A stretch of 64,000 bases of DNA from an uncultured Candidatus Saccharibacteria bacterium (lineage in GTDB: Bacteria; Patescibacteriota; Doudnabacteria; UBA920): the NCBI GenBank assembly GCA_964561085.1, contig CAZLNP010000004.1, positions 15,580-79,579 on the forward strand, given 5' to 3'. The translations under genes and the position numbers were made by a program. The notes beneath the pieces are model-generated. The model made no database searches. It was not told the DNA's origin and saw only the letters and a list, made by a program, of their open reading frames with translations. This document shows positions 13-42,389 of the stretch, piece by piece. Each line of letters opens with the position of its first letter. The first letter of the stretch is position 1.

Positions 13-2172
13 CTATTTTTTTAGCACCATTCCGACAAAGCTGTCTGCTAGTAAGTCTTGAGTGTATTTTAATTGAGTTCCTTCAACATATGCAGTATTA
101 GATTTCCATAGGCTACTCCTGCCATTGAAGCTTACATTATATTCTAAAGATCCCACTTGCGAACCTGGTTGCTTTTGAATTAATAGACTGTGTCTATCTA
201 TGTTCTCCAATTTAAAAGGTAAATTATAAGTGATAGTCACGGTGTTTGTCTGCCCTCCCGCTGTTTCAAGCCAATTTCCAAACCAAGTCTTACCCGCTTC
301 TGTTCCAGTGTATGTGCCAGTATTTATATCTTGAGATAAATCTTTCTGCCACTCCTGCACCTGCTCATCTAATATATATCCCTCAGATTCTAGACGCGGT
401 AATTGTACATCATTATTGAACCCTTCACTTGAAATGAGCGTGGAACCTTTCGGAACATATATCCTGACAAAGCTTTTATTTGTTAACCCTGGTGAATTTG
501 GGAGTGGGTTTTTAACTGTATAACTTAGAGTATTGATCATGCTACCATCTTCCGCGATAGCGGTAGAAAGTTTGGTGCTTCGTATAACAGAACGATCAGT
601 TTTAGTACCGCCTAAATTAGAATTTACAACACTTAAATAATCTCGTTCGGTTGAACGTAATTCCCCACCCCAGTTGAAAGCGCTTATCTTCTTTTGAATT
701 TCCGAGTCTCTAGAGTAAAGCAATATTTGTTTTTTATATAAATTCTGTTGGAATACTTCAAGGAATGGCATAACTCCTCCACCACTTTCTTTATCCCCTA
801 ACTTCTCCATCAATAACGGGAAAAAGTCTGCCAAAAATTGTTTTGGTTGATTAATAACTTTGTCGTAGTTAACAGATGTTTCTTCTTGAGTTTTCTCTAC
901 AAAATTTTCTTTAGTCAAAGTCACTCCATGTTGAGGTAGATTCACTGGGCCGGTCCGCTCAAGCATATCTAGAATTACATCAGGGGTCATGGTAATAATT
1001 AAATCAGGAGTTTCGCCGCCTTCCTTCTCGTAAAGAGCGCTAATTCTAGATGCTGATTGAGGGAAGCTGGCAAACCAATTACTGTCCCTTAAAAACCATT
1101 GGTTGTTGACTGAATACATGGGCTGAGGAGGAAGAATTTTTTCTTTCAACTGGCCATCCCAATCATACACACTTTTTATTTCCAAAGAAGCAATCCCACC
1201 ATCGGTTAATTTTGCATTTCCGATAGTGCCCATAAACCCTCCACTAGCGCGGAGTTCATTATTATTTTGAAACACTAACAAGATATTTTTAGAGCCTAGA
1301 AGTAAGTCAAAGACCAAGGAAGATACTTCTTTCAAAGTAGATGCGTTTTGTTGGAATAAACCTGCTGCGTCTCTTGCCGCCATGAATGACTGTTGATAGC
1401 TTTCAGGCAAGCTACTAATAGAAACCTCATTAATTAGCTTTGAAGCTGTATCTGCTAGCTCAACACTCTCACTTAGTAAAGTTTGGATTTCCCCTAAAGT
1501 CTGTTTGTTATTTTCATTTCCACTTAGTCCCACAGCGCTAAGCTTTAGATTTTCTGTAATTGTAATTAACTCAGTTCCTTTAATCCCCGCTTCTGTAATT
1601 AATTCCGCTGCAGTTAATAGTCGATCTGCGTCATGTTTTTGGGGAACCACGGAAAGCAATCCTTTTAATATAATACTAGTTGAATTCAAAGTCTCTTTGC
1701 TGTTTTTGAACTGCTCAAGAGCCTTTCCTAAGTTCGCTTGCGCTGCTTCGGTATTTTCAGATTCTAAAGATGTTTGTGCGTCTTGCAAGTAACCAATTGC
1801 CGTTGTGCTCGACCCAAGTACTTCTCCTTTTACATCTTGTCCTGCAGAAATTAAATTAAGCCCGTGAACTGTGCTCCCTGCTAATACAGCTAGAAGAGAA
1901 AAAACAGCAACAGTTTTTTGAAATTGCAGGTTCTTAAATTTCTTAAACACAGTGGACATGTGTGTTGGAGAGTCAGCCAATATTTTTGCAAGTGTCCAAG
2001 GCGACGTAATAATAGAAACTAGAGTAAGGCCAATCCCGTAGCAGACATTTACTATAATCTCAGCGAAGAAAGATGCAAGTTTTTTGATCAAGCCAAAAAA
2101 ACCAGTTTTCTTATTGTAGACTACTGGCTCATATTGAGCATGATGCAAATATAGCTTTATCTTTTTTTTCAT
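13..2172 (-). CDS. Large membrane-anchored protein with a DUF4012-like region (FQNNNELRASGGFMGTIG motif), 719 aa
   Basis: Complete ORF with an N-terminal hydrophobic segment followed by a long extracytoplasmic region. The NNxELRxxGG motif recalls the DUF4012 family seen near cell-wall loci. Its start overlaps the ftsW stop by 4 nt, suggesting an operon. Family assignment is from memory and not verified. Confidence 0.45.
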   Translation of the reverse strand: MKKKIKLYLHHAQYEPVVYNKKTGFFGLIKKLASFFAEIIVNVCYGIGLTLVSIITSPWTLAKILADSPTHMSTVFKKFKNLQFQKTVAVFSLLAVLAGSTVHGLNLISAGQDVKGEVLGSSTTAIGYLQDAQTSLESENTEAAQANLGKALEQFKNSKETLNSTSIILKGLLSVVPQKHDADRLLTAAELITEAGIKGTELITITENLKLSAVGLSGNENNKQTLGEIQTLLSESVELADTASKLINEVSISSLPESYQQSFMAARDAAGLFQQNASTLKEVSSLVFDLLLGSKNILLVFQNNNELRASGGFMGTIGNAKLTDGGIASLEIKSVYDWDGQLKEKILPPQPMYSVNNQWFLRDSNWFASFPQSASRISALYEKEGGETPDLIITMTPDVILDMLERTGPVNLPQHGVTLTKENFVEKTQEETSVNYDKVINQPKQFLADFFPLLMEKLGDKESGGGVMPFLEVFQQNLYKKQILLYSRDSEIQKKISAFNWGGELRSTERDYLSVVNSNLGGTKTDRSVIRSTKLSTAIAEDGSMINTLSYTVKNPLPNSPGLTNKSFVRIYVPKGSTLISSEGFNNDVQLPRLESEGYILDEQVQEWQKDLSQDINTGTYTGTEAGKTWFGNWLETAGGQTNTVTITYNLPFKLENIDRHSLLIQKQPGSQVGSLEYNVSFNGRSSLWKSNTAYVEGTQLKYTQDLLADSFVGMVLKK

Positions 2173-3266
2173 TTTGACTGCCTAGAAATATTTAAAACAA
2201 TCCCACAACCAGCTAAAGTCATAATCATAGCGCTACTACCATAGCTAAAGAATGGCAATGGAATCCCAGTAAGAGGTAATAGACCAGTAATCGCACTAAT
2301 ATTTACAACCGCAGCTGCTCCAATACTACCTATGACCCCCACTGTTAACATCTTACCAAACAAATCGGGTGCTTTGTAACTAATTTGGATACCTCTAACA
2401 ATAAACCATATAAATAAGAGCAAAATTAGGATAACCCTGATAAAACCAAGCTCCTCCGCCATGACAGCGAATATTGAATCGTTAATTGCTTCTGGGAGGT
2501 AGGAGTACTTTTGGCGAGAGTGGCCATAGCCATATCCGAACCATCCGCCACTGCCGATGGCAATTAAAGCTTGGTTTATCTGATACCCAATTCCCAGAGG
2601 GTCTACTGATCTGTTTAAGAAGGCGGTTATGCGCTTAACACGATACGGCTCAAGTTTAATTAAAACTAACATTATCGCAACTCCAGCAGTAGTTAGCCAA
2701 GCAAAGTATCGTAAACGAATACCGCCTACGAAGAGCATGATGCCTGCAGTTAGAACTAGTGAGATCATAGTTCCTAAGTCTGGTTGCCATAAAATTAGTA
2801 AACAATACAATCCAATTATTAACACAGGAGGAAGGACAGATTGAAAAAACCCTTTGATATGACCACGCGTGCTTATCCACCCTGCTAAATATATAATAAT
2901 GGCTAACTTAGCGGCCTCAGCGGGTTGGAAGAATAACGGGCCGATATCAATCCATCGAGTAGCTCCATTTGCTCCAAAACCAATTCCAGGAACTTTAACC
3001 AAAAGTAATGCGATCAAAGTCGCTGCAATACCGAACGGAATGAATTTCTTCCAAATATGGTAATCGATACGTGATAGAACATACATTGCGAGCAAACCAA
3101 TACCTATTCCGTACATCAACTGATGAGTAAAGTAGTAACTGGTGTTGCCAAAGTTTTGTTGCGATTCAACTGTTGAAGCAGACCAAAGCATGATTAAACC
3201 AATGACGATGAGTCCGCCTAATAATCCTAAGAATAAATAATCTACTGGTTTTTTTGTTGCTGCCAT
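2169..3266 (-). CDS. ftsW: SEDS-family peptidoglycan glycosyltransferase, FtsW-like
   Basis: Polytopic 365-aa protein with the conserved FtsW/RodA C-terminal motifs (GGSS-like, LPxTG[IL]PLPF[FI]SYGGSS). It sits immediately downstream of murD, the typical dcw position. Confidence 0.85.
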   Translation of the reverse strand: MAATKKPVDYLFLGLLGGLIVIGLIMLWSASTVESQQNFGNTSYYFTHQLMYGIGIGLLAMYVLSRIDYHIWKKFIPFGIAATLIALLLVKVPGIGFGANGATRWIDIGPLFFQPAEAAKLAIIIYLAGWISTRGHIKGFFQSVLPPVLIIGLYCLLILWQPDLGTMISLVLTAGIMLFVGGIRLRYFAWLTTAGVAIMLVLIKLEPYRVKRITAFLNRSVDPLGIGYQINQALIAIGSGGWFGYGYGHSRQKYSYLPEAINDSIFAVMAEELGFIRVILILLLFIWFIVRGIQISYKAPDLFGKMLTVGVIGSIGAAAVVNISAITGLLPLTGIPLPFFSYGSSAMIMTLAGCGIVLNISRQSK

Positions 3267-3267
3267 T

Positions 3268-4590
3268 TTATTTCACTAAATCAACGAACTGATTACCTCT
3301 ATCCGCATAGTTTTTAAACATATCAAAAGATGCAGAAGCAGGGCTTAGAAGCACAACCTCGCCTGGTTCGGACCTGGCCTTGATGTCACTTATCAGTTTG
3401 CTCAGATTTTCATATGGCCCAAAAACTTCTAGTGCAGAACCAGTACTTTCAAAAAGCTCTATCAACTTTAGAGCAACTTCACCTATTAGGTTTATGCTTG
3501 CAATGTTATTCTTCGCGTTTAAGTACTCCACTAATTCAGAATAGTCTAACCCTTTGTCAGACCCACCAAGGATTAAATGGATTGGTTCATTAAATGAATT
3601 AACTGCTGCAATGGTGGTTTCTGGTACAGTAGAAATACTGTCGTTATAGTAAGAGGTGCCATCTATGTTGCCTACCAGTTGTAATCTGTGCTCAAGCCCT
3701 GTAAATTCATTTACTGCTTTAGTAATAGTATCAATATCCACATTAAGGCAAAGCCCCGCTAGACTTGCCGCAGCAATATTCTCTAAATTATGAACACCTC
3801 TCAACTTTCTATCTTTACAATTAATCTCTGCTTCCACTTCACCTGTTAAAATAACTTTTTCACCATCAATGTAAGCCCCTCTTTGTGGTTTAGTCTTTGA
3901 AGAAATCGTTAGCTTCTCACCTTTTCCTAAAGTGCCAATCTTAGCAGTTGCTTCGTAGTCGATATTAGATATAGAAACATCATTAGAAGATTGGAACGCT
4001 GTAATAGCAGTTTTGGCTGAATGATATTCCTCTAAATCTTTATGATGATTCAGATGATCAGAAGTTGTCATTAGGCAAATCCCAATGTGAGGGCTTTGAG
4101 TTAAGTCTTGTAATTGGAAACTAGATAGTTCGTAAACTACGATAGAGCCTTCATTAGTTTCATCCAAAAATTCTAAAGGTTGAATTTTGCCAATATTGCC
4201 AGTAAGAAATAAATTTTTACCATCAACTTTTCCGGCAGCTTTCAGGACTTCAAAAATAAGGGAACTTGTTGTCCCTTTGCCTTTAGTCCCAGTAACACCA
4301 ATAATTGTTGATTTGGAATTCCCAAAGAACCACTTAGTCTGGCTAGTAATAGTAGACCCTTTTTGTTCAGCTTCTAAAATTTTAGGATGATGTCTCCATA
4401 TTCCTGGACTCCGAAAAAGTAGACTACAATCTGAGATTGAATCTAAATATCCCTCTCCATCTTTTTGATCATAGACCGTTGCATCTAACCCATGCTTCTT
4501 GAGGTATGCCAAAACAGCTTGCCCTTCCTGACCAAAGCCAAGTATTCCAATCTTATGATTTTTTAGCTCATCTATTCCGGAATTCATCAA
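3268..4590 (-). CDS. murD: UDP-N-acetylmuramoylalanine--D-glutamate ligase
   Basis: N-terminal Rossmann motif GILGFGQEG and the Mur ligase P-loop GVTGTKGKGTT. Length is 440 aa, in the dcw context. Confidence 0.9.
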   Translation of the reverse strand: MMNSGIDELKNHKIGILGFGQEGQAVLAYLKKHGLDATVYDQKDGEGYLDSISDCSLLFRSPGIWRHHPKILEAEQKGSTITSQTKWFFGNSKSTIIGVTGTKGKGTTSSLIFEVLKAAGKVDGKNLFLTGNIGKIQPLEFLDETNEGSIVVYELSSFQLQDLTQSPHIGICLMTTSDHLNHHKDLEEYHSAKTAITAFQSSNDVSISNIDYEATAKIGTLGKGEKLTISSKTKPQRGAYIDGEKVILTGEVEAEINCKDRKLRGVHNLENIAAASLAGLCLNVDIDTITKAVNEFTGLEHRLQLVGNIDGTSYYNDSISTVPETTIAAVNSFNEPIHLILGGSDKGLDYSELVEYLNAKNNIASINLIGEVALKLIELFESTGSALEVFGPYENLSKLISDIKARSEPGEVVLLSPASASFDMFKNYADRGNQFVDLVK

Positions 4591-4591: not shown

Positions 4592-6154
4592 TTACTTCTT
4601 TAAGAATATTCCTGCTTTGTTTCCTGTAACAGAGCCAGCAGTAACGGCTTTCTCTCCATTAACCCAAACTTGTTCTATCCCATCTGCGTATTGGTATGGG
4701 TTTTCAACTGATGCTTTAGATCCAATCTTTTGTGGGTCAAACAATACTAGATCGGCTTTAGCATCTACGGCAATTACTCCGCGATCTTTTAAGCCAATTT
4801 TCTTTGCGGGACCAGAAGTTAGTTTTCTAATAGCTTCAGTTAAAGAAATTTCTTTTGATGTATTAACATTTTGTAAGAACTTTGCAGCTGTACCAAAACA
4901 TCTTGGATGAACTAATGTATTTGTGTCAGCTGAAGAGTATCCACTACCATTTGTGGCGATGAACGAAAGTGAATGATTGCAAAAATCATCTACAATTTTT
5001 TCGTCCAAGCTAGTATCAAAAACAAGGATTTCACTTCCACCATTTTCAATTAAATGCAGCAAAGCCTCCTCGCTGGTTGTTCCAAATCCAGCAGCTATTG
5101 TTGAGACAGTTTTACCTGTAACCATAAGCTTCGCTGATGTTGAAGCAATCATTAGCTGAGGAATATCTGTTTCAGAAGTGTTTAACGCGCTTAATATTTT
5201 AGCTCTTTGAGTTGGGTTTTTTAGAAGCGCTAATAATTCTAATCGCCCTCCCATTGTTGCCCACGAAGGGAGATATGTGTATATTGGTTGCCATGTTGAA
5301 GTGTACGGGTATACATCGAAATGAACATTTACGCCTCTATGCCATGCTGCTTCCAGCTCAGCTAAGACATCGGTGACTAACGGCCAATTTTCACGGTGCC
5401 GTATTTTCAAATGAGAAATTTTAACATTGGCTTTAGCTTGCTCTGCTGCTGCTATAACTTCGCGAACACTTTCAATAACACTCCCTGACTCATCTCGCAA
5501 ATGAACAGAAATGTAAGCGTCGTGGTTAGCAACAATCTGGGCAAGCTCGTATAGCTCAACATCAGAAATATTTGCTTCATGAGCGTAAGCGAATCCAGTT
5601 GAAACTCCAAAGGCACCTTCATTAATTGCGTCGTCTGCCATTCTCTTCAAAGTTTGTAATTCATCAACAGAAACAGGAGTTTGCTTATCGCCAATAAGCC
5701 CTCTACGCAAAGTAGAATATCCAACTAGGCTGGCTACATTTGCACCAAACCTCTGAGTACTCATAGATTCGGCAAACTCTTTAAAGCTTCGCCAGTTAAT
5801 ATTTACACCTTCCATGGTGTGCCACTTTTGCAAAGAAAGTAATGATTGCTCAGAAATTAATGGAGCTAAACTTGCTCCAGAATTTCCTACCATGATTGTT
5901 GTGTAGCCTTGCGTAATCATGCTTTCTAAATTTGGACCGTCGAATAAACGCCAATGACTGTCGCTATGGTTTTGAATATCGATGAACCCTGGAGCTAAAA
6001 CTTTTCCCTCAGCATGAATAACTTCTTGCGCTTGGGAGGTTATATCTTGAGATATATTAACAATTCTATCGCCATTAATAGCAACGTCAGCTGTAATTGG
6101 TGCTGACCCTGTTCCATCAATAACGGTAGCTTTTTTAATTAGCAATGAGTACAT
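4592..6154 (-). CDS. Amidohydrolase of the N-acyl-D-amino-acid deacylase (D-aminoacylase) family
   Basis: The N-terminus (ATVIDGTGSAPITADVAINGDRIV...VLAPGFIDIQNHSDSH) matches the D-aminoacylase / N-acyl-D-Glu deacylase pattern. Length is 520 aa. It is wedged between mraY and murD. Confidence 0.6.
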   Translation of the reverse strand: MYSLLIKKATVIDGTGSAPITADVAINGDRIVNISQDITSQAQEVIHAEGKVLAPGFIDIQNHSDSHWRLFDGPNLESMITQGYTTIMVGNSGASLAPLISEQSLLSLQKWHTMEGVNINWRSFKEFAESMSTQRFGANVASLVGYSTLRRGLIGDKQTPVSVDELQTLKRMADDAINEGAFGVSTGFAYAHEANISDVELYELAQIVANHDAYISVHLRDESGSVIESVREVIAAAEQAKANVKISHLKIRHRENWPLVTDVLAELEAAWHRGVNVHFDVYPYTSTWQPIYTYLPSWATMGGRLELLALLKNPTQRAKILSALNTSETDIPQLMIASTSAKLMVTGKTVSTIAAGFGTTSEEALLHLIENGGSEILVFDTSLDEKIVDDFCNHSLSFIATNGSGYSSADTNTLVHPRCFGTAAKFLQNVNTSKEISLTEAIRKLTSGPAKKIGLKDRGVIAVDAKADLVLFDPQKIGSKASVENPYQYADGIEQVWVNGEKAVTAGSVTGNKAGIFLKK

Positions 6155-6172: not shown

Positions 6173-7231
6173 TTATTTGTCTAAGAAGTAAACAATTACC
6201 CCGATTATTCCAGCTACGACAGATAGAATCCAAAAACGCATTGTGACTTTTGACTCTGGCCAACCCAAGGCTTCTAAGTGATGATGTATTGGTGCGGATA
6301 GAAAAAGTTTCTTTTTAAATACGCGTCTCCAAGTTATTTGTAACAAAAATGATCCTGCCTCGATAACGAAAATCAGTCCGATTAAAGGCAGTAGTAAGGT
6401 GGTATCTGTTAAAAATGCGACTATTGCGAGTAGCACCCCGAGACCCATCGAGCCTGTATCGCCCATGAAAAATCTGGCTGGGTGAACATTAAACCATAGG
6501 AAAGCGAGTAATCCTCCACAGACCACTCCACACAAAGCAGCTAGGTTTTCTCTGCCTTGCATGTACGAAATTATTGCAAAACAAAAGAACGCAATCGAAA
6601 GAGTTCCGCCAGCTAGTCCATCGAGCCCATCAGTTTGATTAACTGCAAAACTTGTACCGACTACTACTAGCAAGAAAAAAGGAATGAACAATAGCCCTAA
6701 ATAGATGTCTCCAAAAAATGGAACATGGATTGAATCAAATCCAATCTTTACATAAAACCACCAAGCGCCAATTAGAGCAACAAGTGTGTATAAAACAAAT
6801 TTAACTCTGAACCGGATCCCTCTTCCTTTATGACCACGTCCTCTAATATCTAAATAATCATCTAGGAATCCTACAAGGGCAGCACCGAACATGGCGCCGA
6901 TTGGTAAAAGAGTTTCTCTGCGAGTCAAAAAGTTTAATATATGGAACTGTTCAATTCCTGCAACGCGATCCAAAAACCAAAATACACTTGCTAGAACTAG
7001 GACACTTCCCCAAACCAAAATACCGCCCATTGTTGGAGTCCCTTTCTTCTTTGCATGCATCTCTGTATACAAAGGAGTGGATCCATCTGAGCGGATATTT
7101 TTTCCTAAACGGAAGTGATAAATAAATTTTGAAAACAGTGGGGTGACAGCAATCGCAAATAAAAAAGCGATTGTACTTAAACTGAAAATTTTAATCAATT
7201 CGTCTGTAGCCATGCTTATATTATACCACAT
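6173..7231 (-). CDS. mraY: Phospho-N-acetylmuramoyl-pentapeptide transferase
   Basis: Polytopic protein with the MraY motifs (NxxNxTDGLDGLA, DTGSMGLG, HHH[LF]E). The true start may be the internal Met at about 7213. Confidence 0.9.
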   Translation of the reverse strand: MWYNISMATDELIKIFSLSTIAFLFAIAVTPLFSKFIYHFRLGKNIRSDGSTPLYTEMHAKKKGTPTMGGILVWGSVLVLASVFWFLDRVAGIEQFHILNFLTRRETLLPIGAMFGAALVGFLDDYLDIRGRGHKGRGIRFRVKFVLYTLVALIGAWWFYVKIGFDSIHVPFFGDIYLGLLFIPFFLLVVVGTSFAVNQTDGLDGLAGGTLSIAFFCFAIISYMQGRENLAALCGVVCGGLLAFLWFNVHPARFFMGDTGSMGLGVLLAIVAFLTDTTLLLPLIGLIFVIEAGSFLLQITWRRVFKKKLFLSAPIHHHLEALGWPESKVTMRFWILSVVAGIIGVIVYFLDK

Positions 7232-7255: not shown

Positions 7256-8266
7256 TTATTGAATCATGATATTTTCTGATTTGGATAGAACATTCTTCTT
7301 TAGAAGCTTGGTATCGCCTTCTCTATCTGTGCTTCCAAGGATGATTATGATGAATTTCAGGTCTTTACTATGGATCGCAGTGATCATCGCTCCTTTGGCT
7401 TCATCAGTAAAGCCTGTTTTAATGGCATGAATCTCCGGATCTTGAGCTAAAAGTGTATTCGTTGCTTTAACCGAGTAGGTTTTGCCCGTCTCGCTGATAA
7501 ATGTGTAGGACTGCTTTCTATCTATTTCAGAGAATAAAGTCATTGGCCTAACAACATCTAATAGTCTCTTTAAGTCGTTAGCTGTTGAGTAGTTTTGCTC
7601 GCTATCCCATCCAATTGGATTCTCGTAGTGAGTGGACTCCATGCCTAAAGCATCAGCCTCTTTGTTCATAAGGTCAATAATTGGTTTTTTAGATACCGAA
7701 CTTACGTAAGCACCTAATGTTGCTGCTGAATCGTTTGCTGAACCAATGAGCATTGCATCAACTAAATCTTTAACAATAACTTTGTCGCCTGGAGTTAAGC
7801 CTAGTATCGGTCTTATGTCGCTCAAGTTGGATGAACTAATTGCCCAGGTATCATTTAAGTTTCCATACTTCTGCGTAACATACGCAGTCATTAGCTTAGT
7901 AATGCTGGCAATCGCTACTGCAGCATCTGGATTTCGGGAAGATATAACCTCGCCAGTTTGTTCGTTATAAATTAAATAGCTATCAGCCTTAACACCTTCG
8001 CCTATTGCAGGATTAACATCTTCGGAACTACTCGCAGCAAAAGTGTCGCCTGAACTTAACCCAAAGATTTCACTTTCCACTTTAGGATTACCTTTGTCAG
8101 CTCCCGGAGCAAGCATTGGGCGCGTGAAGGCAAAGATTACTGTAGTGACGAATAGCGCTGCAATTAACAGGCCGCCAAGTCGCTTCCCACTTTTTACAGC
8201 GTGATGTTTTAATGTTTTTTTAGGCATATCTATAACAGTATAATGCATAAACGATTGACAATCCAC
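7256..8266 (-). CDS. D-alanyl-D-alanine carboxypeptidase (S11 peptidase, PBP5-like)
   Basis: SxxK active-site motif (ASITKLMT) and an SGN-like motif (IGSAND), with an N-terminal signal or anchor. The start is uncertain because there are several in-frame Met codons. Confidence 0.75.
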   Translation of the reverse strand: MDCQSFMHYTVIDMPKKTLKHHAVKSGKRLGGLLIAALFVTTVIFAFTRPMLAPGADKGNPKVESEIFGLSSGDTFAASSSEDVNPAIGEGVKADSYLIYNEQTGEVISSRNPDAAVAIASITKLMTAYVTQKYGNLNDTWAISSSNLSDIRPILGLTPGDKVIVKDLVDAMLIGSANDSAATLGAYVSSVSKKPIIDLMNKEADALGMESTHYENPIGWDSEQNYSTANDLKRLLDVVRPMTLFSEIDRKQSYTFISETGKTYSVKATNTLLAQDPEIHAIKTGFTDEAKGAMITAIHSKDLKFIIIILGSTDREGDTKLLKKNVLSKSENIMIQ

Positions 8267-8696: not shown

Positions 8697-10466
8697 TTAC
8701 AACTTATAAGTTTCACCTGGCTGAATTCCTGCATTCGGTTGCGTTTGTATTTCTTCTTTAGGAACTTCTACCTTTGGAGCATCGATCTTTGGATTGGCAT
8801 GAGCAGTTTGAATGGCCTTAGCTACATTTTCTGCGATCTCATTTTGTTTACTTGATTGGATAGCTGCCGCTGTATCCCAAATTGCAGCAGATTTATTTGG
8901 TTTCTTAGGCTGATTCTTAGGTGCTGTTGCCATTGGTTTAACCTCAGGCTTAGCCATGGGTTTTGATGGTTGCCTCATTTGCTGCATTCTATCTTTGAAT
9001 GCTGAAGATATCTTAATTGGAGGAGGGGTAGCAGGCTTGCTTTGAACTGGAGTATTTGTAGAAGCGCTTGTAGGTGTAAATGCAGCCGGCTTTGGTGCAA
9101 CATCCGGAATATCATTCTCTCTAGACCGAGCTTTCTCTCCGCCACTAGCGGAGTCTGCGCTGGCCTCATGGAACTCAGCACCCATCCATCTGTTAATCTT
9201 ATCTTCTACTTCAGCACTTGGATTTGCATATCTTTCCCTAGAAACTTTAATGACTTTCTCTGAATTTCCAGTAAACCAATTTTCATCAACTTGCAAAGAA
9301 GTCGCTGTGAATGGATCACTTGCTACGCCATTAATCATTAACTTTAAAATAACATTATATTTTGGAATGTTTACAATATCCACCGGGGTAAATGATGGTT
9401 CGAACTCAGTTTCTAAAAACTCAGCATCAGCAGCACCGACACGGAACACAATCATTGAGCCAACGTTACCAAAAACCGCATCACGCATTTTTGTGTTGCC
9501 TTCAGGGACCAACTGTCCAATGTACTGATGGCCCATAGTCAAATTTAGGCGATACTTACGAGCTTCACTCAAAATAGTAGCAAAAGAGTCTGTTACGAAA
9601 TTTTGGAACTCATCTACATATAGGTAGAAGTCTTTACGCTCATGCTCAGGGATATCAACACGAGAAAGCGCCGCTAACTGTAATTTAGTAATGATCATAG
9701 CACCAAGCAAGGCGGAGTTATCTTCTCCTACTTTACCTTTTGAAAGATCAAGCAAAAGAATCTTCTGATTATCCATGATCTCTCTAAGATCGATCGTAGA
9801 CTTTGGCTGCCCTACAATATTACGAATTACGGAGCTAGATAAAAACTGACCAACTTTGTTTTGAATCGGTGCTACAGCTTCTGTTCTATATTTTTCTGCG
9901 TAGTTAGCAAACTCTTCTAGCCAGAAAGCTCTAACCATCGGGTCTTTAATTCCGTCGACAATTTTCTTACGGTACTTTTTATCTACGTACATACGAACAA
10001 TACCCATCATGGTATTACCGGGGCTATCTAGTAAAGCTAAAATAGTGTTGTTCAAAATGTATTCCATACGAGCCGACCACATGCTTGCCCAAATTTTTGT
10101 AAACACACCCATTAAACCTGAAGCTACTAAATGTTTATACTTACTATCTACTGCTTCAAGAATGTTAAATGCGATAGGGTGATCTAAGTCTGCAGGGTTA
10201 AAATAGACCACATCGTTAATCCGATCATTTGGAATGTAATCTAAAATTTTCTTTAGTGAGTCTCCATGAGGATCAATAAAACAAACCCCGTTACCATTGC
10301 GAATATCTTGAATAACCATGTTTTCCATCATGGTTGTTTTACCCATACCAGTCTTACCGATCATATACATATGACGGCGACGGTCATCGGTTTTAATACC
10401 AAATGGCACTTGCCGGTTACGGAAGTTGGTTTTCCCAAAAAAATTGATTACTTCTTTTTCAGCCAT
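8697..10466 (-). CDS. VirD4/TraD/TraG-like (type IV coupling protein family) P-loop ATPase with a disordered Pro/Ala/Lys-rich C-terminal tail
   Basis: Walker A (IGKTGMGKTT) near the N-terminus, a Walker B-like LYVDEFQNF, and a helical all-alpha insertion typical of TrwB/TraD-like hexameric ATPases. There is no N-terminal TM segment. The last ~170 aa are low-complexity. Family call is from pattern memory, not a search. Confidence 0.45.
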   Translation of the reverse strand: MAEKEVINFFGKTNFRNRQVPFGIKTDDRRRHMYMIGKTGMGKTTMMENMVIQDIRNGNGVCFIDPHGDSLKKILDYIPNDRINDVVYFNPADLDHPIAFNILEAVDSKYKHLVASGLMGVFTKIWASMWSARMEYILNNTILALLDSPGNTMMGIVRMYVDKKYRKKIVDGIKDPMVRAFWLEEFANYAEKYRTEAVAPIQNKVGQFLSSSVIRNIVGQPKSTIDLREIMDNQKILLLDLSKGKVGEDNSALLGAMIITKLQLAALSRVDIPEHERKDFYLYVDEFQNFVTDSFATILSEARKYRLNLTMGHQYIGQLVPEGNTKMRDAVFGNVGSMIVFRVGAADAEFLETEFEPSFTPVDIVNIPKYNVILKLMINGVASDPFTATSLQVDENWFTGNSEKVIKVSRERYANPSAEVEDKINRWMGAEFHEASADSASGGEKARSRENDIPDVAPKPAAFTPTSASTNTPVQSKPATPPPIKISSAFKDRMQQMRQPSKPMAKPEVKPMATAPKNQPKKPNKSAAIWDTAAAIQSSKQNEIAENVAKAIQTAHANPKIDAPKVEVPKEEIQTQPNAGIQPGETYKL

Positions 10467-10503
10467 ATTGTTATATCTATTCTGTTTATATTATATACGA
10501 AAA

Positions 10504-11667
10504 CTAGATAGGAAGGTCTGCAGGTGGTTGAATTTTCTTTGTACTAACAGTTTCAACCGAAGCGTTAACCTGGTCGGCTGTAATCGGGAAATGGAACAAA
10601 GTGGCCAATTCCTCCGCATTAAGAATGTACATAGGATTACCGATCCAAGTACTACGGCCTTTAAACGCTTTAAAAATATCGATCTTCTTTTGACGAACCC
10701 AATAATTAATGAAAGGAGCTTCCAAAGTCGGTGAAATGCGATAGTCTTTCTTTGGACCAAAAGCTAACTTAAAACTGTTAGAGTTGGCAGAGTTAAATAC
10801 CTTAAAAGGACTGAGCAGTAATTTTTTTGCATCTTTGTTAAAACTTTCCTTAACACCCATGTGCAATACGCGGATTTTTGTACTAAAACCAGGCTTACCT
10901 AATTTAGATTTAATTGATGCAATGCGTAATTTCGTTACATCATCAATCTGTTGGAAATCCTTTTCTCCTTGCAACTTCTCTACAGTTGCCTCAGCTTCTT
11001 TTCTCCATGAATCATCACCTACAGGCTTGATGATTATTTGCATAGCATAAAACTCTTTTGCGCTTAGGCGAGTAAAAACTTCCAAAAGTGGGCTAAGAGG
11101 ATCTACTACTTTCTCGCTAGCATCAGGCCCTTTTAAACTTATAAATTCTCTGTAAGTACGAATAGGAATAACTTCTGATTGAGTTAGCACCATCTCCCCG
11201 CCAAAAAGCTCATATTTTTCATTATCTGGATTATATTCAAAATGAGAAAGATAATCTTCTATCTCGTTCATTTCTATATGAGGGTAGTTAGCGTAAAAAG
11301 AGGCTTCAACAAGCTCTTTTTGCTTCTTTGGTACCCGAATGACGTATGAGATTTTACCACCCAGGCTGACGATTTCTAAAGAAAGCCAGAACACTAACTT
11401 CCCTTCAATGTATTTTTCTTGAAAGGTCCAGTTATCGAATAATTGATGAAGCTGTATAAAAATTTGCTCAGCATTGTAAAAACTAGAGATGTTTTCTTTC
11501 GGAGGTTTTATTTCGTAATAAACCCATTCCAAACTATTTTTATAGTTATCTTGGATTTCGTTTAAGTATATTTGAAAAAGTATGTAAACAAAAAGAATGG
11601 CAAAAACAACCCAACCGCCGTGGGAAAATAAATACCATACTATACTTAGAATTGAGCTATCAGTCAT
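10504..11667 (-). CDS. Hypothetical membrane-anchored protein (one N-terminal TM, large soluble domain), probably co-transcribed with the downstream ATPase
   Basis: Hydrophobic N-terminus ILSIVWYLFSHGGWVVFAILFVYILFQI. There is a 38-nt gap to the ATPase start on the same strand. No recognizable motifs. Confidence 0.5.
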   Translation of the reverse strand: MTDSSILSIVWYLFSHGGWVVFAILFVYILFQIYLNEIQDNYKNSLEWVYYEIKPPKENISSFYNAEQIFIQLHQLFDNWTFQEKYIEGKLVFWLSLEIVSLGGKISYVIRVPKKQKELVEASFYANYPHIEMNEIEDYLSHFEYNPDNEKYELFGGEMVLTQSEVIPIRTYREFISLKGPDASEKVVDPLSPLLEVFTRLSAKEFYAMQIIIKPVGDDSWRKEAEATVEKLQGEKDFQQIDDVTKLRIASIKSKLGKPGFSTKIRVLHMGVKESFNKDAKKLLLSPFKVFNSANSNSFKLAFGPKKDYRISPTLEAPFINYWVRQKKIDIFKAFKGRSTWIGNPMYILNAEELATLFHFPITADQVNASVETVSTKKIQPPADLPI

Positions 11668-11739
11668 GATTTGTTTTAATTTTTGTATCTAGAGTTTCAG
11701 GGCTTCGCTAATTAGTTTTCGTAACTAAGCAGTAACCGT

Positions 11740-12825
11740 TTAAGCTAAGTCGTAAAGATTTTTTCCAACTTTCTTAACTAGTTTCTTATTCGAAAGTCCA
11801 ACTAAAATAGTGTTGTTCTTAACCATGCGACGTTTCAAAACTTCTTCGATAATTTCTTCTCGTGACATTGGCTTACCAGCATCTTTTAGAACATTAACGA
11901 TGATATCTGATACTACACCTGGCTTATATCCCCATTCAGCTAAAGCATACATGCCGCGGCCCACAAGTACAAAGCGTTTATCTTTGATAAGTTTATTGTG
12001 CACTGTTTCTTTATAGGCAGTGCGTTTGTCTAAACCATGTTTGTTAATCAAATCAGTAATTACTGAGTAGTGCTCAGGTTTGTTGTGGTGTTTCATCACC
12101 AAATAGGCTTTATCGCCAACATCTTTAGGACGGATTTCATTCCAGTGGTGCATACCAAATTCACCAAATGGATTTTTATGAATCCCTGAGGTTGCTTGCA
12201 AATAGTTTATGATAACGCGTGGTGAAAGTTGTGGTTCATACTTTTTGAAGAAATCAGATTCAGCAAACTTTTCAATAAATTCTTCAGGTTGTAATGGTTT
12301 TCCGTGATTATCCAAAATGCCGCGAGTTGTGTTTACAAACTCTTTAATAAATTCTTTATCAAAGCCAATGCGAGACCAAGATTGCTTAATATGCTTATCT
12401 TCGGAATGTTCTTCAAGTTCAGCCATTAAGTTTAGTAAGAACTTCAAAGCGTTTGCTTCTTCATCAGTTTCTGCACCTAAATGACCCATTAATGTCTTTT
12501 CAGACATAATGCCGCCATGCTCTGTAATTGTTGTTAAAAGAAGATCGCGCGCGGCTAAAAAGGAGTCCAATTGTTGAACACCATTCTTTAGGTTCTTTAG
12601 TAAATCTTTTTCAATTTGACGAACACGCTCACGTGTTAATCCTTGCTCTTCCCCCACTGTTTTAAGGGTTTGCATTTCTTCACCACCAAGACCGTAACGC
12701 TTAGAAAGTATAGACTTTTCGCGTTCACGTAATGGATCTAAAATTTTGGTGATAATTAGATTTAATTCAAATTGTTGTAGAGATTCTTTTTGATGAGAAT
12801 CAATTATTGTATCTAAAATGCCCAT
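11740..12825 (-). CDS. Putative transcription factor with an N-terminal sigma-70 region-4-like HTH and a C-terminal HARE-HTH-like winged helix
   Basis: The N-terminal ~85 aa match sigma-70 region 4 (LSKRYGLGGEEMQTLKTVGEEQGLTRERVRQIEKDLLKNL). The C-terminus (...TAYKETVHNKLIKDKRFVLVGRGMYALAEWGY) resembles the HARE-HTH / RpoE-delta N-domain pattern FxRVGRGxYxLxEW. There are no sigma region 2/3 equivalents. Confidence 0.5.
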   Translation of the reverse strand: MGILDTIIDSHQKESLQQFELNLIITKILDPLREREKSILSKRYGLGGEEMQTLKTVGEEQGLTRERVRQIEKDLLKNLKNGVQQLDSFLAARDLLLTTITEHGGIMSEKTLMGHLGAETDEEANALKFLLNLMAELEEHSEDKHIKQSWSRIGFDKEFIKEFVNTTRGILDNHGKPLQPEEFIEKFAESDFFKKYEPQLSPRVIINYLQATSGIHKNPFGEFGMHHWNEIRPKDVGDKAYLVMKHHNKPEHYSVITDLINKHGLDKRTAYKETVHNKLIKDKRFVLVGRGMYALAEWGYKPGVVSDIIVNVLKDAGKPMSREEIIEEVLKRRMVKNNTILVGLSNKKLVKKVGKNLYDLA

Positions 12826-23417: not shown

Positions 23418-24863
23418 TTATACCATCAGATCTTGGGCAAGGAGGTTAAAGTTGCCCACAGCCATCACAATAACTACATCACCTGGCTTTAATTCGCCCT
23501 TAAGTAAGGCTAAAGCTGCTTTTTTATCCTCAACTAAGCGAACATGTTCATGGCTTTTGCCAATAGCCTCTACCACTTGAGCGCCTGTAATACTTTCCGC
23601 GGTTTTCACTTCACGAGCAGGATAGATTTCTGCCAGAAGAACTTCATCTGCCGATCCAAAAGACTTTGCCAACTCTTCTAAAGTCGCAGATGTTCGACTG
23701 TAAGTATGAGGTTCGAATACAGCCCAGATTTTCTTGTCTGGAAACTTAGTGCGAGCGGCTTTAAGTGTTTCTAAAACAGCTGTTGGGTGATGCGCATAGT
23801 CATCATAGATTGTTACTCCATTGTTTTTTCCAATGAGTTCAAAACGACGCTTAACTCCATAGTAAGAAGAGATTCCATCTTGAACTTGCTCTTGAGAGAA
23901 TCCTAAAGTGCGTAGCAATGCGATTACTCCTAAAGCATTGTAAACGTTAATATCACCAAATAAATTTATCTGGTAGTTTTCAATAATTGGTTCGGTCTTT
24001 TCGGTTGTACCTGGTTTGATCTTTGTCCAAGCTACATCAAACGATGTACCTGTTTCATCTGCAACCAAATTGGTCGCTCGGAAGTCAGCCGGATTATTTA
24101 ATGCAAAGGAAACTTGACCGACATTATTTTCATGCATCAACATTGCAAGTGATATATCATCTGCGTTGTAGACAGCGACTCCATCACTTGGAAGAGCTGC
24201 AATCAGTTGGCGGAACTCATCTTGCATTTCTTCTAATGAAGAGAAAATATCTGGATGGTCAAACTCTAAATTGGTTAGAACTAAAATATCTGCTTTGTAC
24301 TGATGGAACTTAGGAATTGGATCATCATAAAGTGCTTTGTATTCATCGCCTTCGAACACAAAATAGTGTCCTTCTCCAACATGAAAGTTTGTTTCTTCGT
24401 GCTGAAGAACTGCACCAGTCATATATGAAGAGTCATCAATTTCTTGTAAAGTTTTCCCAAGCATTCCAGTTGTGGTTGACTTCCCATGAGTTCCCGCAAC
24501 AACAACGCGCAATTTTTCTTGAGAAAGAGCTGCTAAAAGTTCACTGAAAGAATGAACTTGAATTCCGCGCTCAACTAAGTAAGCCACTTCAGGGTTCGAT
24601 TCGCTTTCCCCAGAAGAAGCGATGTACAAATCTGCAGAGTTATCCTGAATGTTTTCTATCGCATAACCAGCAACGTATTCTATGCCGTTTGATTCTAAAA
24701 CTTGTTTTGCCGGGTCGTATAACTCTTTACTATCACTCCCACGCACCTCAAAGCCTAGTTGAGCGGCAATACCAGCAGCTGCTGACATTCCTACACCACC
24801 AATACCAATGAAATATATGGATTTAACTCCTTCTAGGAGATCTAGATTTTCTGAATATGTCAT
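23418..24863 (-). CDS. murC: UDP-N-acetylmuramate--L-alanine ligase
   Basis: N-terminal YFIGIGGVGMSAAA and the Mur ligase P-loop AGTHGKSTTTGML. Length is 481 aa. Confidence 0.85.
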   Translation of the reverse strand: MTYSENLDLLEGVKSIYFIGIGGVGMSAAAGIAAQLGFEVRGSDSKELYDPAKQVLESNGIEYVAGYAIENIQDNSADLYIASSGESESNPEVAYLVERGIQVHSFSELLAALSQEKLRVVVAGTHGKSTTTGMLGKTLQEIDDSSYMTGAVLQHEETNFHVGEGHYFVFEGDEYKALYDDPIPKFHQYKADILVLTNLEFDHPDIFSSLEEMQDEFRQLIAALPSDGVAVYNADDISLAMLMHENNVGQVSFALNNPADFRATNLVADETGTSFDVAWTKIKPGTTEKTEPIIENYQINLFGDINVYNALGVIALLRTLGFSQEQVQDGISSYYGVKRRFELIGKNNGVTIYDDYAHHPTAVLETLKAARTKFPDKKIWAVFEPHTYSRTSATLEELAKSFGSADEVLLAEIYPAREVKTAESITGAQVVEAIGKSHEHVRLVEDKKAALALLKGELKPGDVVIVMAVGNFNLLAQDLMV

Positions 24864-24865
24864 AC

Positions 24866-25942
24866 CTAATCATTAATTGTAGTTTTTAGTAAACTCTTCA
24901 CTTTTTCTTCGCGACTATTTAACTCACTCTCTTTATCGGACAGTAGCTGCCAAAGTCCGGGAAGGTTTTGTAATGCCACTCTTCTCCCTGCTTTATAGTA
25001 TTCTTCAGTGCTACTGAAATCTGTGAAATGTAAATATAGATAACGTTTCCAAAAAGTAGGTGGCGCAACATCTGGAGTAAGGATTATATCGCAATTATAA
25101 TTTTCATCTTTTTCTTGCTCTTTCTGAGCTTTAATAGCCAGACCAATGGCTTTATCTAAAACTGTAAAGATACCAGGATACAAAGTCTTATCGTGTAAGC
25201 GGTCTACATTTTCATAAGCACCTAGAGCATCTTCATAATCTAAAATGCCTTTAAAGTTTCTCCAAAGTTGATTAATCTGACTAGGCCACAATATCTGCTT
25301 AATTAAATCAAGACTCTTTTTCAGCATGATTTGCCACGAGCTAAATATGTGCCTAGTTGCACGCATATCTACACCAATTACAACATCCATGTTCGCCTCA
25401 CGCGCTACGTTTCCTGGCACTATGTTAATTATACCTCCATCAAGGAGTTGTTTATTCCCCCATTCAAAAGGCTGGAAAACTCCCGGCAATGTGCAAGATG
25501 CGCAAACAGCTTTGGCTATATCACCAACTTGTAAAGTCACCTCAGAGTTTTTAGGGTCTGTAGCAGAGATATCAGTTGTAACAAAACTTAATCTTGGGTT
25601 CACTTCTTCAAACTTTTTGTTCTTTGTATAAACTCGAAGCAAAGCTTCAACTTTATCTAAATGATATAAACCTCCACGGCCCTTGCTTCTTTCAATTAAA
25701 TTGAAAATTAGCTCTTTGTCCATTCCCAAAGCCATTTGTTTAAGAGCAGGCAAGGTACCGCAAGCAAAACTTGCAGCCACTACTGCGCCACCAGACATTG
25801 CTGAAATGTAATCAATTGGAAAACCATTCTCTTCAAGGACCTCTAAGAACCCAATGTAAAAGACGCTGCGTGAAGAAGCACCGCTGAAAGCAAATCCAAC
25901 CGTCGGTCTATTGTTTGAATGTGGAATACTGTTTCTATTCAT
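24866..25942 (-). CDS. Patatin-like phospholipase
   Basis: GxSxG-type nucleophile elbow (SAMSGGA) plus the DGG catalytic-dyad motif (LLDGGIINIVPG). Confidence 0.65.
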   Translation of the reverse strand: MNRNSIPHSNNRPTVGFAFSGASSRSVFYIGFLEVLEENGFPIDYISAMSGGAVVAASFACGTLPALKQMALGMDKELIFNLIERSKGRGGLYHLDKVEALLRVYTKNKKFEEVNPRLSFVTTDISATDPKNSEVTLQVGDIAKAVCASCTLPGVFQPFEWGNKQLLDGGIINIVPGNVAREANMDVVIGVDMRATRHIFSSWQIMLKKSLDLIKQILWPSQINQLWRNFKGILDYEDALGAYENVDRLHDKTLYPGIFTVLDKAIGLAIKAQKEQEKDENYNCDIILTPDVAPPTFWKRYLYLHFTDFSSTEEYYKAGRRVALQNLPGLWQLLSDKESELNSREEKVKSLLKTTIND

Positions 25943-27086
25943 GAATAACTTTCTTTATTACAGTTAACATTTTTTCTGTTGCATTAGGCGGCATTATTGA
26001 GTGGATATTCTTTTGCATTTCTTCCTGAAGCTCTTTGTCGAAGAGGATTTTACGAACACCTTTTGCTAAAGTATCTGGGGTTATATCCTTTTCATCTAAA
26101 ATAATGGCTGCGTTTTTATCGTATAAATACTGAGCGTTCCACTCTTGGTGAGTTTCTGGCATTGGCACAATAATACTAAGTTTTCGCAAAGCAGACAATG
26201 CCGTAATAGCCCCTATACCTGCCCGGCTAATTACAATGTCAGCTGCCATGTATGCCTGATCAACTTTGTTAATGAACTCGTATTGATGATACCTGTCGTG
26301 GCCATGCGCTATGTCTATGGCCGGATTAATCAACTTCCCTGGTCCAGTACTATGAATAACCTGGGCAACTTTCAAAAGCTCGGGCAAGTTATGCTCCAAT
26401 GCCGCATTTAATCCTCGGGCTCCGCTGCCACCACCAATTACTAATACTGTCGGCCAATCGTGATCGAGCTTAAATAAATTACGAGCGACATTTCTTTCTT
26501 CATCTGTTGGGGAAACGTTATTTAGTTCTGTTGGGTTACCGGTCCACTCAATTTTTGTATATTGTGAATAGTTTTTTTCAAAACCTGAACCTTGAGGAAA
26601 ATCCTTTAATGATTTTTCAAATGTTGTAGTTACTTTATTTGCAAAAGGGGTACAAATTCTATTTGAAAATGTGGGGACTATATCTTGTTGATGAATCACT
26701 CTCGGGATTCTTAGAAGCCATGCTGCGACTATAACTGGGACTTGAACATAACCGCCAGCACCAACAACTACCTTCGGCTTTAGAGCTAGCAACAAAATAA
26801 GCGACTGTATTAACCCAATTAAAGTTAAAAAGGGTGAAACAATATTTTTAAAAGACCAATAGCGCCGGAGTTTGCCTGAAGTGATTTTTTTAAATTTGTA
26901 GCCACGGGCTGGAACAATTCTAGCTGCTACTGAATTCTTTATATCCAAAAAGACTGGCTCAATCTTTGAGTCTTGTTTAATCCACGCATCAGCCAAAGCT
27001 AATAATGGCATTACAGGTCCAGCTGTTTCACCGCCAACAAAGATTACTTTTTTTGTTTTATTTATACTATTCATTTTCTGGTTCAA
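25935..27086 (-). CDS. murG: Undecaprenyldiphospho-muramoylpentapeptide beta-N-acetylglucosaminyltransferase
   Basis: GT28 N-terminal motif (VIFVGGETAGPVMPLLALA) and C-terminal GGSGARGLN. Confidence 0.8.
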   Translation of the reverse strand: MNQKMNSINKTKKVIFVGGETAGPVMPLLALADAWIKQDSKIEPVFLDIKNSVAARIVPARGYKFKKITSGKLRRYWSFKNIVSPFLTLIGLIQSLILLLALKPKVVVGAGGYVQVPVIVAAWLLRIPRVIHQQDIVPTFSNRICTPFANKVTTTFEKSLKDFPQGSGFEKNYSQYTKIEWTGNPTELNNVSPTDEERNVARNLFKLDHDWPTVLVIGGGSGARGLNAALEHNLPELLKVAQVIHSTGPGKLINPAIDIAHGHDRYHQYEFINKVDQAYMAADIVISRAGIGAITALSALRKLSIIVPMPETHQEWNAQYLYDKNAAIILDEKDITPDTLAKGVRKILFDKELQEEMQKNIHSIMPPNATEKMLTVIKKVIHE

Positions 27087-33147: not shown

Positions 33148-33497
33148 AGGTTCCAAGCAAATCGAATGATCGCCCTAAGCGCGCGAAAGCTGCTGCTGGG
33201 GAGGAAAGTCCGAACACTTAGTTGATAGCCTCTATAGAGTTATTAACAATGGTAGCGGGTAACACCCGTCGAAGGTAACTTCAGAGATGCGAACAGAGAC
33301 GCGTTAATCAGAAATGATTGCGCACCCCACTAAGTTGGTTGGGTGAATCGATATGGAAACATATCGGGTGAAACGGCTAAATTCTTACTTGAGTGCAATG
33401 CCAAATTAGGTAGGCAGCAACGAGGTCGTTGGCAACAACGATCCCAGATAGATGATCATTTAGAAACAGAATTCGGCTTACGAGTTTGCTTGGGACA
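33148..33497 (+). ncRNA. rnpB: RNase P RNA, bacterial type A
   Basis: Conserved P4 5' strand GGAGGAAAGTCCGAAC, J11/12-like GGGTGAAACGG, and the 3' conserved ACAGAATTCGGCTTA. An 11-bp P1 pairs ttccaagcaaa (33151-33161) with tttgcttggga (33485-33495). Confidence 0.8.
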
Positions 33498-33808: not shown

Positions 33809-34504
33809 CTACTTCCCCAATCTTCTCTCACGGCGCTCGTAATCAACGAGTGCCTTTTTTAATTCTGGCTTCTTAAAATCTGGCCAAAGAATATCTGTAA
33901 AATAAAATTGACTGTTAGCTATTTGCCACATCATAAACCCTGCTGACCAATGCGGTTCTCCTCCTGTGCGAATAACTAAGTCTACATCTGGTAAATCTGC
34001 AGTCCACAAAGATGATCTAAGGCTCTTACTATTTACGCTATCGCCTTTCTTCACCAAAGAGTTGGCAGCTGCAATCATTTCACGCTGTCCATCGTAGCCA
34101 AATAAAATAGTTAAAGTATTCTTTTTGAAATGCTTGGTTTTATTTTGCAAATCTAAAACTGCTTCTACAACTTTTTTGTCTTTAACAAAGTCTGTCCACT
34201 CACCTAAAACTTTAAATTGCGCCTCATTTTGCAAACACTTATTTAATACATTCGGCTTAGCGATCTCATCTGACATAATCTTAAACAAATAGTTTACCTC
34301 AATGGCAGTTCTCTTTTTTAAGTTTGAATATGATCCACCCCAAAAAGTAACGTTTGGAATTCCTAGATCAAGACACGCAAGTGCTGTTTCCCAAAAACGT
34401 TTAGTCCCTTCTATATGTCCTTCCCACGGATTTAAAAGCCGGGATTCCGCCCAGCGTCTATTTCCATCAGGAATAATTGCAATGTGATTTGGTAAACTCA
34501 TCAA
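33809..34504 (-). CDS. uppS: Undecaprenyl diphosphate synthase (isoprenyl transferase)
   Basis: N-terminal HIAIIPDGNRRWA motif and a C-terminal RTGGE-like region (IRTGGEPHWS). Confidence 0.85.
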   Translation of the reverse strand: MMSLPNHIAIIPDGNRRWAESRLLNPWEGHIEGTKRFWETALACLDLGIPNVTFWGGSYSNLKKRTAIEVNYLFKIMSDEIAKPNVLNKCLQNEAQFKVLGEWTDFVKDKKVVEAVLDLQNKTKHFKKNTLTILFGYDGQREMIAAANSLVKKGDSVNSKSLRSSLWTADLPDVDLVIRTGGEPHWSAGFMMWQIANSQFYFTDILWPDFKKPELKKALVDYERRERRLGK

Positions 34505-42258: not shown

Positions 42259-42332
42259 TGGCACGGGCTGTAGGAATCGAACCTACGCAGCTGGTTTTGG
42301 AGACCAGCGTACTGCCACTATACGAAGCCCGC
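42259..42332 (-). tRNA. tRNA-Trp (anticodon CCA)
   Basis: Reverse complement reads GCGGGCT...CTCCAAA...GGTTCGATTCC...GCCA. The anticodon loop is CTCCAAA and CCA is encoded. A TATAAT box lies just upstream on the minus strand. Confidence 0.85.
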
Positions 42333-42371
42333 AAGTTGCACTACCTATTCAGTCTCATTATAGCAAACCCC

Positions 42372-42388: not shown

Positions 42389-42389
42389 A

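Follow-up and report, generated by a model that had tools for sequence, protein, structure and literature searches.

A D-aminoacylase-fold protein, predicted to be catalytically inactive, in the mraY-murD block of a Patescibacteria cell-wall gene cluster

Several proteins of the amidohydrolase superfamily are non-catalytic, among them PyrC', the inactive dihydroorotase-like subunit of the Pseudomonas aspartate transcarbamoylase, and the CRMP/DPYSL proteins. Here we describe a further candidate, encoded in a 64-kb stretch of DNA (the window; contig CAZLNP010000004.1) from an uncultured Candidatus Saccharibacteria bacterium of the Patescibacteria. It is the product of an open reading frame (ORF) of 520 amino acids (aa) that starts with ATG and lies at 4592..6154 on the minus strand, between mraY and murD in the division and cell wall (dcw) cluster; we refer to this amidohydrolase-family protein as X. 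The ORF and its placement, proposed in an initial annotation, agree with the ORF list and with the families of the neighboring genes. The closest described enzymes are the D-aminoacylases, or subtype-V amidohydrolases, whose defining features are a catalytic Asp and a zinc site formed by Cys, His, and His (PMC12017989). In PpOngB, alanine mutants of Cys97, His222, His252, and Asp368 had extremely low or no activity, and the H68A and H70A mutations abolished activity (PMC12017989). Asp366 of the A. faecalis enzyme has been proposed as the general base and was found to be "fully conserved" in the D-acylases studied, and in these enzymes specificity is set by an inserted lid region (PMC12149444).

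X belongs to the D-aminoacylase branch of the subtype-V amidohydrolases. Its best match among the PDB sequences is the D-aminoacylase 1M7J (E=9.5e-58 with phmmer and a single sequence; E=4.5e-77 with a profile), and the next phmmer matches are PpOngB, the Klebsiella D-acylase, and the N-acyl-D-glutamate (N-acyl-D-Glu) deacylase 3GIP. The AlphaFold2 (AF2) model (pLDDT 85.1, pTM 0.88) has the overall fold of the D-aminoacylases, a beta-sandwich and a (beta/alpha)8 barrel with an inserted alpha/beta domain, and Foldseek aligned it with 9GV8, 3GIP, 9KB3, and 1M7J at TM scores of 0.81-0.90. Thus X shares the fold and domain plan of the solved D-aminoacylases at about 28% identity, the inserted alpha/beta domain being mobile. 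The assignment to the D-aminoacylase/N-acyl-D-glutamate deacylase family made in the initial annotation is thereby sustained, and another subfamily, such as dihydroorotase, is excluded: matches to dihydroorotase, hydantoinase, and allantoinase are confined to the N-terminal ~90 residues of X (the beta-sandwich), with E~1e-7, and the TM scores to other amidohydrolases, including allantoinase and hydantoinase, are 0.5-0.6. CRMPs are among the distant Foldseek matches. The score of X against the NCBIfam model NF006560 (PRK09061) is 156.1 bits, under the cutoff of 340 that sets the threshold of this curated family. In contrast to the D-aminoacylases, X is about 40 residues longer and its gene is located inside a dcw cluster. 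The inserted region at residues ~285-345, corresponding to the lid, cannot be aligned with the solved structures and shows high conservation throughout the X family. In the source databases homologs of X are labeled "N-acyl-D-amino-acid deacylase" or "amidohydrolase family protein."

The active site sets X apart from this branch. Residues were mapped by aligning X, as a single sequence and as a profile, with 1M7J, 9G5M, and 9KB1, with PpOngB numbering given where appropriate; all codons listed below are on the minus strand. The HxH motif had been described as degenerate (DIQNHSDSH), and indeed its first His is replaced by Gln in the sequence Q-N-H: Gln61 (codon CAA, 5972..5974) occupies the site of His67 of 1M7J and His68 of PpOngB. 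When the metal ligands were scored against characterized D-aminoacylases, the loss proved to be wider than had been claimed. Ser92 (codon TCT, 5879..5881) is found at the site of the zinc ligand Cys96 of 1M7J, and Asn402 (codon AAT, 4949..4951) replaces the general base Asp366 at the C-terminal tip of strand beta-8. Thus three residues essential in PpOngB, the first His of HxH, the zinc-ligand Cys, and the general-base Asp, are replaced in X, and neither the HxH motif, nor the Cys/His/His beta-site, nor the catalytic Asp of strand 8 that characterize subtype V is present in intact form. The Cys-to-Ser and Asp-to-Asn replacements are near-isosteric. Asn402 directly follows predicted strand 8 (E397-399 in the AF2 model), and the profile alignment at this place reads "IGSDG" versus "ATD/NG." Moreover, the residue equivalent to Asn402 is the very one at which 9KB3, deposited as an "inactive mutant," departs from 9KB1 (GSAG versus GSDG), and PDB entry 1RJQ is titled D366A.

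The rest of the pocket is retained. His63 (5966..5968) corresponds to His69 of 1M7J, the second His of HxH, whereas His218 (5501..5503) and His248 (5411..5413) correspond to the zinc ligands His220 and His250. The residues that hold an N-acyl-D-amino acid by its free carboxylate and its N-acyl group are also in place and are invariant: Tyr282 of the YPY motif (5309..5311) and Arg418 of the HPR motif (4901..4903), equivalent to Tyr279 and Arg373 of KleDacyl, at the carboxylate site, and Tyr190 (5585..5587), equivalent to Tyr188 of KleDacyl, at the acyl site (PMC12149444). Five positions of the pocket, Y190, Y282/Y284, R418, and the polar side-chain-site residues K250 and E222, are retained in 157-169 of 171 sequences. 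Judged by the three replacements, X is probably inactive as a catalyst.

The history of these replacements can be followed in the homologs. A search with X returned 3,144 proteins, and the best 120, which were examined, all come from Patescibacteria and are about 520 aa long, except for one fragment of 444 aa. Gln is found at the first-His position in 120/120 homologs covering that position. The other two positions co-vary perfectly among 121 homologs, Cys occurring with Asp (47 sequences) and Ser or Ala with Asn (74 sequences) with no exception; in the Asn class the His220 equivalent is also replaced in nine sequences and the His250 equivalent in one. Only columns 92 and 402, of 520, are fixed differently between the Cys/Asp and Ser/Asn classes. 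The per-block entropy is otherwise near-identical between them, and 107 positions are at least 98% invariant in homologs down to ~52% identity. To describe each protein we use a six-letter ligand pattern, the residues at the His67, His69, Cys96, His220, His250, and Asp366 positions of 1M7J. When species-level representatives were placed in a tree, the Ser/Asn proteins fell into a single clade within the QHCHHD proteins; the outgroup, HHCHHD, has all six canonical residues. This Ser/Asn clade consists of 26 species-level loci and the window's own sequence, and one of its subclades has lost the His220 equivalent as well (to Ser, Ala, or Gly). A search for compensating residues in the clade yielded none, columns 92 and 402 being the only ones that discriminate, and the nearby Asp410 is not conserved.

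X is under strong purifying selection. The ratio of nonsynonymous to synonymous substitution rates (dN/dS) between X of the window and its closest relative (98% identity, locus L005) is 0.023 at dS 0.35; in more distant pairs synonymous sites are saturated, and the proportion of nonsynonymous differences (pN) is only 0.10-0.26. Thus X combines the loss of essential residues with purifying selection and long retention after the loss, as is expected of a pseudoenzyme. The lost catalytic residues could also be those of a decaying relic, a functionless pseudogene in the making. However, the dN/dS value, the ORF of 520 aa that is intact in dozens of species, and the invariant positions effectively refute this explanation, to which we give practically no chance. 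Taken together, the low dN/dS, the retained pocket, and the residue loss indicate a selected pseudoenzyme and not a decaying gene.

Beyond the closest homologs the replacements become diverse. In a survey of the nearest 150 representatives of clusters at 50% identity, the first His is replaced by Q, L, T, S, N, or V and the Asp by N, A, G, S, E, Q, or H, and some members retain hardly any of the six residues (NENQHQ, NQNTHQ, KRFNEE). Fitch parsimony on a neighbor-joining tree of 142 representatives requires a minimum of ~10 changes at the Asp position, ~8 at the Cys position, and only ~2 at the first His.

The genomic context of X is that of peptidoglycan precursor synthesis. In the window, X is part of a packed block of genes on the minus strand, S11-mraY-X-murD-ftsW-DUF4012. 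The S11 D-Ala-D-Ala carboxypeptidase-like gene (7256..8266) is the upstream member of this conserved block. The mraY gene (6173..7231; TIGR00445, 224 bits) ends 18 nucleotides (nt) upstream of the start of X, murD (3268..4590; TIGR01087, 338 bits) starts 1-4 nt past the X stop, ftsW (2169..3266; TIGR02614, 365 bits) begins 1 nt past the murD stop, and the start of the DUF4012 gene (13..2172) overlaps the ftsW stop (ATGA). No convincing terminator was found between the genes of the block, and the G+C content is uniform from the S11 gene to the DUF4012 gene, so there is no sign of a recent insertion of X. A second FtsW/RodA-family gene, murC, murG, and uppS stand apart from the mraY-murD block (49854-50966; 23418-27086; 33809-34504), and hence the cell-wall genes are found at several places in the genome.

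The same arrangement was observed in related genomes. Species-representative genomes contributed 80 loci, and in these the order S11-MraY-X-MurD-FtsW-DUF4012 is kept as far as the contigs reach; more distant members were added by individual look-ups and a metagenome scan. Altogether 170 non-redundant loci were collected by similarity, so that the percentages describe the family and not an unbiased sample. The immediate downstream gene of X is MurD in 104 of 141 cases and FtsW in 19, whereas the immediate upstream gene is MraY in 84 of 140 and MurI in 8. At least one adjacent peptidoglycan precursor gene is present in 115 of the 119 loci that can be assessed on both sides (97%), and orthologs outside dcw clusters are therefore not the rule. 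By its strand, its tight packing among mur and fts genes, and its conservation across species, X is a component of the dcw cluster.

Several further gene orders around the D-Glu step occur among the more distant members. The protein with all six canonical residues (HHCHHD) is encoded in the order GAPDH-MurI-X-MurD, where MurI matches TIGR00067 with 224 bits versus a cutoff of 147. MurI also precedes X in S11-MraY-MurI-X-MurD-FtsW-MurG(-MurC), with the patterns NHCHHD, LHCHHD, and LHCHHA, and in MurI-X-PgeF-like-MurD-FtsW-MurG, with LHFHHG. The orders S11-MraY-MurL-MurD-X-FtsW-MurG and X-MurL-MurD, in which MurL matches NF041275 at E=5e-79, are accompanied by the patterns LHCHHD and SHTYHN. S11-MraY-X-FtsW-MurG occurs with NHCHHD and LHCHHD, X-FtsW-MurG with NENQHQ, and X-MurD with NHCHHN (37 loci). 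The peptidoglycan gene context is retained even where the six ligands are all or nearly all gone (X-FtsW-MurG). By the parsimony count, the general base was lost at least ~10 times without loss of this context.

Several features of individual loci were seen in the course of this comparison. The PgeF-like gene (L087, 2216-2929; TIGR00726, 133.7 bits, cutoff 141) lies between the degenerate X homolog and murD, downstream of murI. A small zinc-finger protein (a weak match to zf_Tbcl_2) is encoded directly upstream of a fully degenerate homolog (L085, 165-392; L086, 218-409). The long family members are either tandem amidohydrolase duplications or proteins with a CxxC extension, and a fusion to a peptidoglycan enzyme was seen in none of them. 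Two complete homologous copies are fused in tandem in P0125 (1077 aa) and P0127 (955 aa), which may hint at a dimeric function, and in P0203 an N-terminal CxxC...CxxC extension (residues 1-175) is fused to the amidohydrolase domain.

Two explanations other than a pseudoenzyme of the peptidoglycan pathway bear on these contexts. The synteny could be historical baggage, X having a role unrelated to peptidoglycan and merely riding in the operon. Operon membership alone is no proof of function, and some members of the family are indeed located outside dcw clusters. However, X swaps partners within one step (MurI, MurL, MurD, MraY, FtsW), in several orders and in lineages that are 35-50% identical, and a change of partner within the same step argues for selection on the association rather than inertia; we therefore hold this explanation to be decidedly unlikely. 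Alternatively, X could still be an enzyme with altered chemistry. For example, it might edit wrongly assembled UDP-MurNAc-dipeptides by hydrolysis, in analogy to PgeF, with no metal or with a different metal site, or it might act on the Glu terminus in a non-hydrolytic way. The extreme conservation of the pocket, including His63, His192, His218, His248, and His416, would be in agreement with this, as would the position of the PgeF-like gene between X and murD in L087; in addition, the conserved lid that cannot be aligned to the solved enzymes suggests a distinct ligand. A single new mechanism is nevertheless hard to reconcile with the chemical diversity of the replacements (N, A, G, S, E, Q, H) seen at the catalytic Asp of strand 8 across lineages, and members nearly devoid of the six residues (NENQHQ, KRFNEE) keep the peptidoglycan context. 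Retained but altered catalysis appears improbable on this evidence.

The neighbors of X tie it to the D-Glu step. The specificity of E. coli MurD for D-Glu is associated with Asp182 and Lys348, whereas MurD2, which adds L-Glu, has Glu197 and Arg358 (PMC8788868). Alignment to E. coli MurD shows the canonical D-Glu signature in MurD of the window, Asp178 (4057-4059) and Lys346 (3553-3555). The signature was validated on the neighbors in our loci: five of five MurL-adjacent MurDs have Glu/Arg, whereas the MurI-adjacent ones have Asp/Lys and, in one case, Asn/Lys. By inference from this signature, the organism of the window would require free D-Glu. The initial annotation had stated that no glutamate racemase is present in the window, and this was confirmed within the 64 kb: the window ORFs scanned (most ORFs of at least 100 aa) yielded neither an Asp/Glu racemase nor a class-IV aminotransferase domain, and tblastn with MurI and MurL of the Candidate Phyla Radiation (CPR) gave no match there. 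In addition, MurI, MurL, and PgeF were sought by motif and by tblastn over the window and ~1 Mb of loci, and none was found in the window or among the loci of its first-His-to-Gln group. Glutamate racemase activity has reportedly been described in the Saccharibacterium Ca. Saccharimonas aalborgensis, to judge by the title of a 2024 paper cited in PMC11974145.

The initial annotation had suggested that X itself might supply D-Glu. Formulated as a rival explanation, X would be an active N-acyl-D-glutamate deacylase, or an L-Ala-D-Glu hydrolase, which releases D-Glu for MurD in a genome without a racemase. The family membership holds, with the N-acyl-D-Glu deacylase 3GIP among the best matches; MurD of the window is of the D-Glu type, so that free D-Glu would be required; neither murI nor murL lies within the 64 kb; and D-Glu release may have been the role of ancestral forms whose ligands were intact. 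On the other hand, the equivalents of Cys96, Asp366, and His67 are replaced, and the equivalent alanine mutants of PpOngB have little or no activity; a subclade lacks His220 too. Moreover, relatives carry X directly beside murI or murL/murD2, degenerate forms such as LHFHHG and LHCHHA included, and thus X is an addition to the D-Glu source and not its replacement. An active deacylase is accordingly highly unlikely, and the notion of a D-Glu route that substitutes for a missing racemase is not supported, whereas a functional tie of X to D-Glu is supported by its murI, murL/murD2, and murD neighbors in relatives.

The MurD proteins encoded next to X differ in their signatures. Many MurDs paired with the QHCHHD form of X have a mixed Glu/Lys signature at the two positions that determine chirality (33 loci: L001, L020, L023, L028-L031, and others). 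The MurD partners of the Ser/Asn clade, that of the window included, are all Asp/Lys, whereas most partners of QHCHHD proteins are Glu/Lys. A causal tie between the Asp/Glu state of MurD and the intact or degenerate state of X was considered and rejected, as several flips are seen on the tree and the sisters of the Ser/Asn clade are already Asp/Lys. The MurD2/MurL module, an L-Glu ligase with an ATP-dependent epimerase, was also found in CPR dcw clusters (L090/L091, 3019-5728; L095-L097; L157). A search for MurL homologs gave 5,647 matches, the best 120 of which have at least 59% identity; their named sources are Paceibacteria, Nealsonbacteria, and Patescibacteria. A 2021 review had this pathway only in some Gamma- and Alphaproteobacteria and in rare actinobacteria (PMC8788868).

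Overall, we cautiously favor the reading that X is a pseudoenzyme derived from a D-aminoacylase and kept in Patescibacteria/CPR as a non-catalytic, ligand-binding accessory of the MurD/D-Glu step. That X functions in the synthesis of peptidoglycan precursors is likely, whereas any specific binding-partner mechanism is tentative. In the proposed course of events, the ancestral form with intact ligands was probably a real deacylase, already located beside MurI and MurD, and a branch of the D-aminoacylases became embedded in the dcw cluster of Patescibacteria/CPR. X of this branch would no longer hydrolyze anything and would still bind a ligand with an N-acyl-D-amino-acid end, and it may serve the MurD step by binding, by hand-off, by scaffolding, or as a regulatory subunit. 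Several points weigh against this reading. The inactivity of the X branch is deduced from homology, and the remaining His63, His218, and His248 would allow a metal or an alternative base. The ligand and a physical contact with MurD are suggested only by the gene neighborhood and the retained pocket residues. The adjacency of 97% comes from loci collected by similarity and not at random, a few members of the family occur outside dcw contexts (P0132/L094; L142, L148, L171), and no fusion of X to MurD, MurI, or MraY was found among the long family members.

An accessory role of this kind has parallels. Like PyrC' and CRMP/DPYSL, X has an amidohydrolase fold that lost metal-binding and catalytic residues and is conserved, as these proteins are in the capacity of structural or binding partners. 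PyrC', whose partner is the enzyme of an adjacent pathway step, is the closest functional precedent. However, X belongs to a different subfamily and a different pathway, and its own partner is only proposed. X is also comparable to MurL/MurD2 as an extra, lineage-restricted gene beside murD that is connected with the identity or stereochemistry of a stem-peptide residue, and the two co-occur in some CPR loci; in contrast to X, MurL and MurD2, which have folds unrelated to its own, are enzymes that catalyze known reactions (PMC8788868). The literature searched contained no account of a D-aminoacylase homolog or pseudoenzyme embedded in a CPR dcw cluster. Thus X, a protein of known fold and family in a predicted non-catalytic form linked to the cell wall, has apparently not been described before.

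Other observations concern parts of the window outside the mraY-murD block. Upstream of the dcw genes lies a conserved block (8697-12825), with counterparts in L001, L003, and L004 and with a gene order unchanged in relatives down to 53% identity. It encodes SecD/SecF, a protein with sigma70_r4 and HARE-HTH domains, a DUF8128-type protein (the window copy has no Pfam match), a TrwB/DUF87-like coupling ATPase, and a divergent thioredoxin. Two adjacent, slightly overlapping ORFs (60640-61365 and 61307-61921) both match the adenylate kinase family (ADK, 81 and 107 bits); they may have arisen by tandem duplication, or one start codon may have been miscalled. Ordinary RNA features are also present, namely the bacterial class A RNase P RNA (114.6 bits; 33154-33496, plus strand) and a cluster of four tRNAs (Trp, Thr, Tyr, Thr; 42259-42987, minus strand).

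The findings are of interest for genome annotation, for enzyme evolution, and for the biology of the cell wall. Database labels of the type "N-acyl-D-amino-acid deacylase" are probably misleading for the X clade. X would be a clean natural case of the conversion of an enzyme into a pseudoenzyme by two isosteric swaps, of the kind used experimentally for substrate traps. More speculatively, X might be an unrecognized component of peptidoglycan precursor synthesis in Patescibacteria: a protein derived from a D-aminoacylase, an enzyme beside MurI/MurD, that was repeatedly converted to a non-catalytic reader of the N-acyl-D-Glu terminus. In that role MurD could not do without it, and it would serve as a subunit for hand-off or for a stereochemical checkpoint, placed between the source of D-Glu (MurI or MurD2/MurL) on one side and MraY and the later ligases on the other. 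How CPR/Patescibacteria build a wall with minimal gene sets is poorly understood, and a strongly conserved extra gene in the mraY-murD block of these ultra-small bacteria, tied to D-Glu in many of their lineages and repeatedly stripped of its catalytic residues, suggests an accessory function in a textbook pathway.

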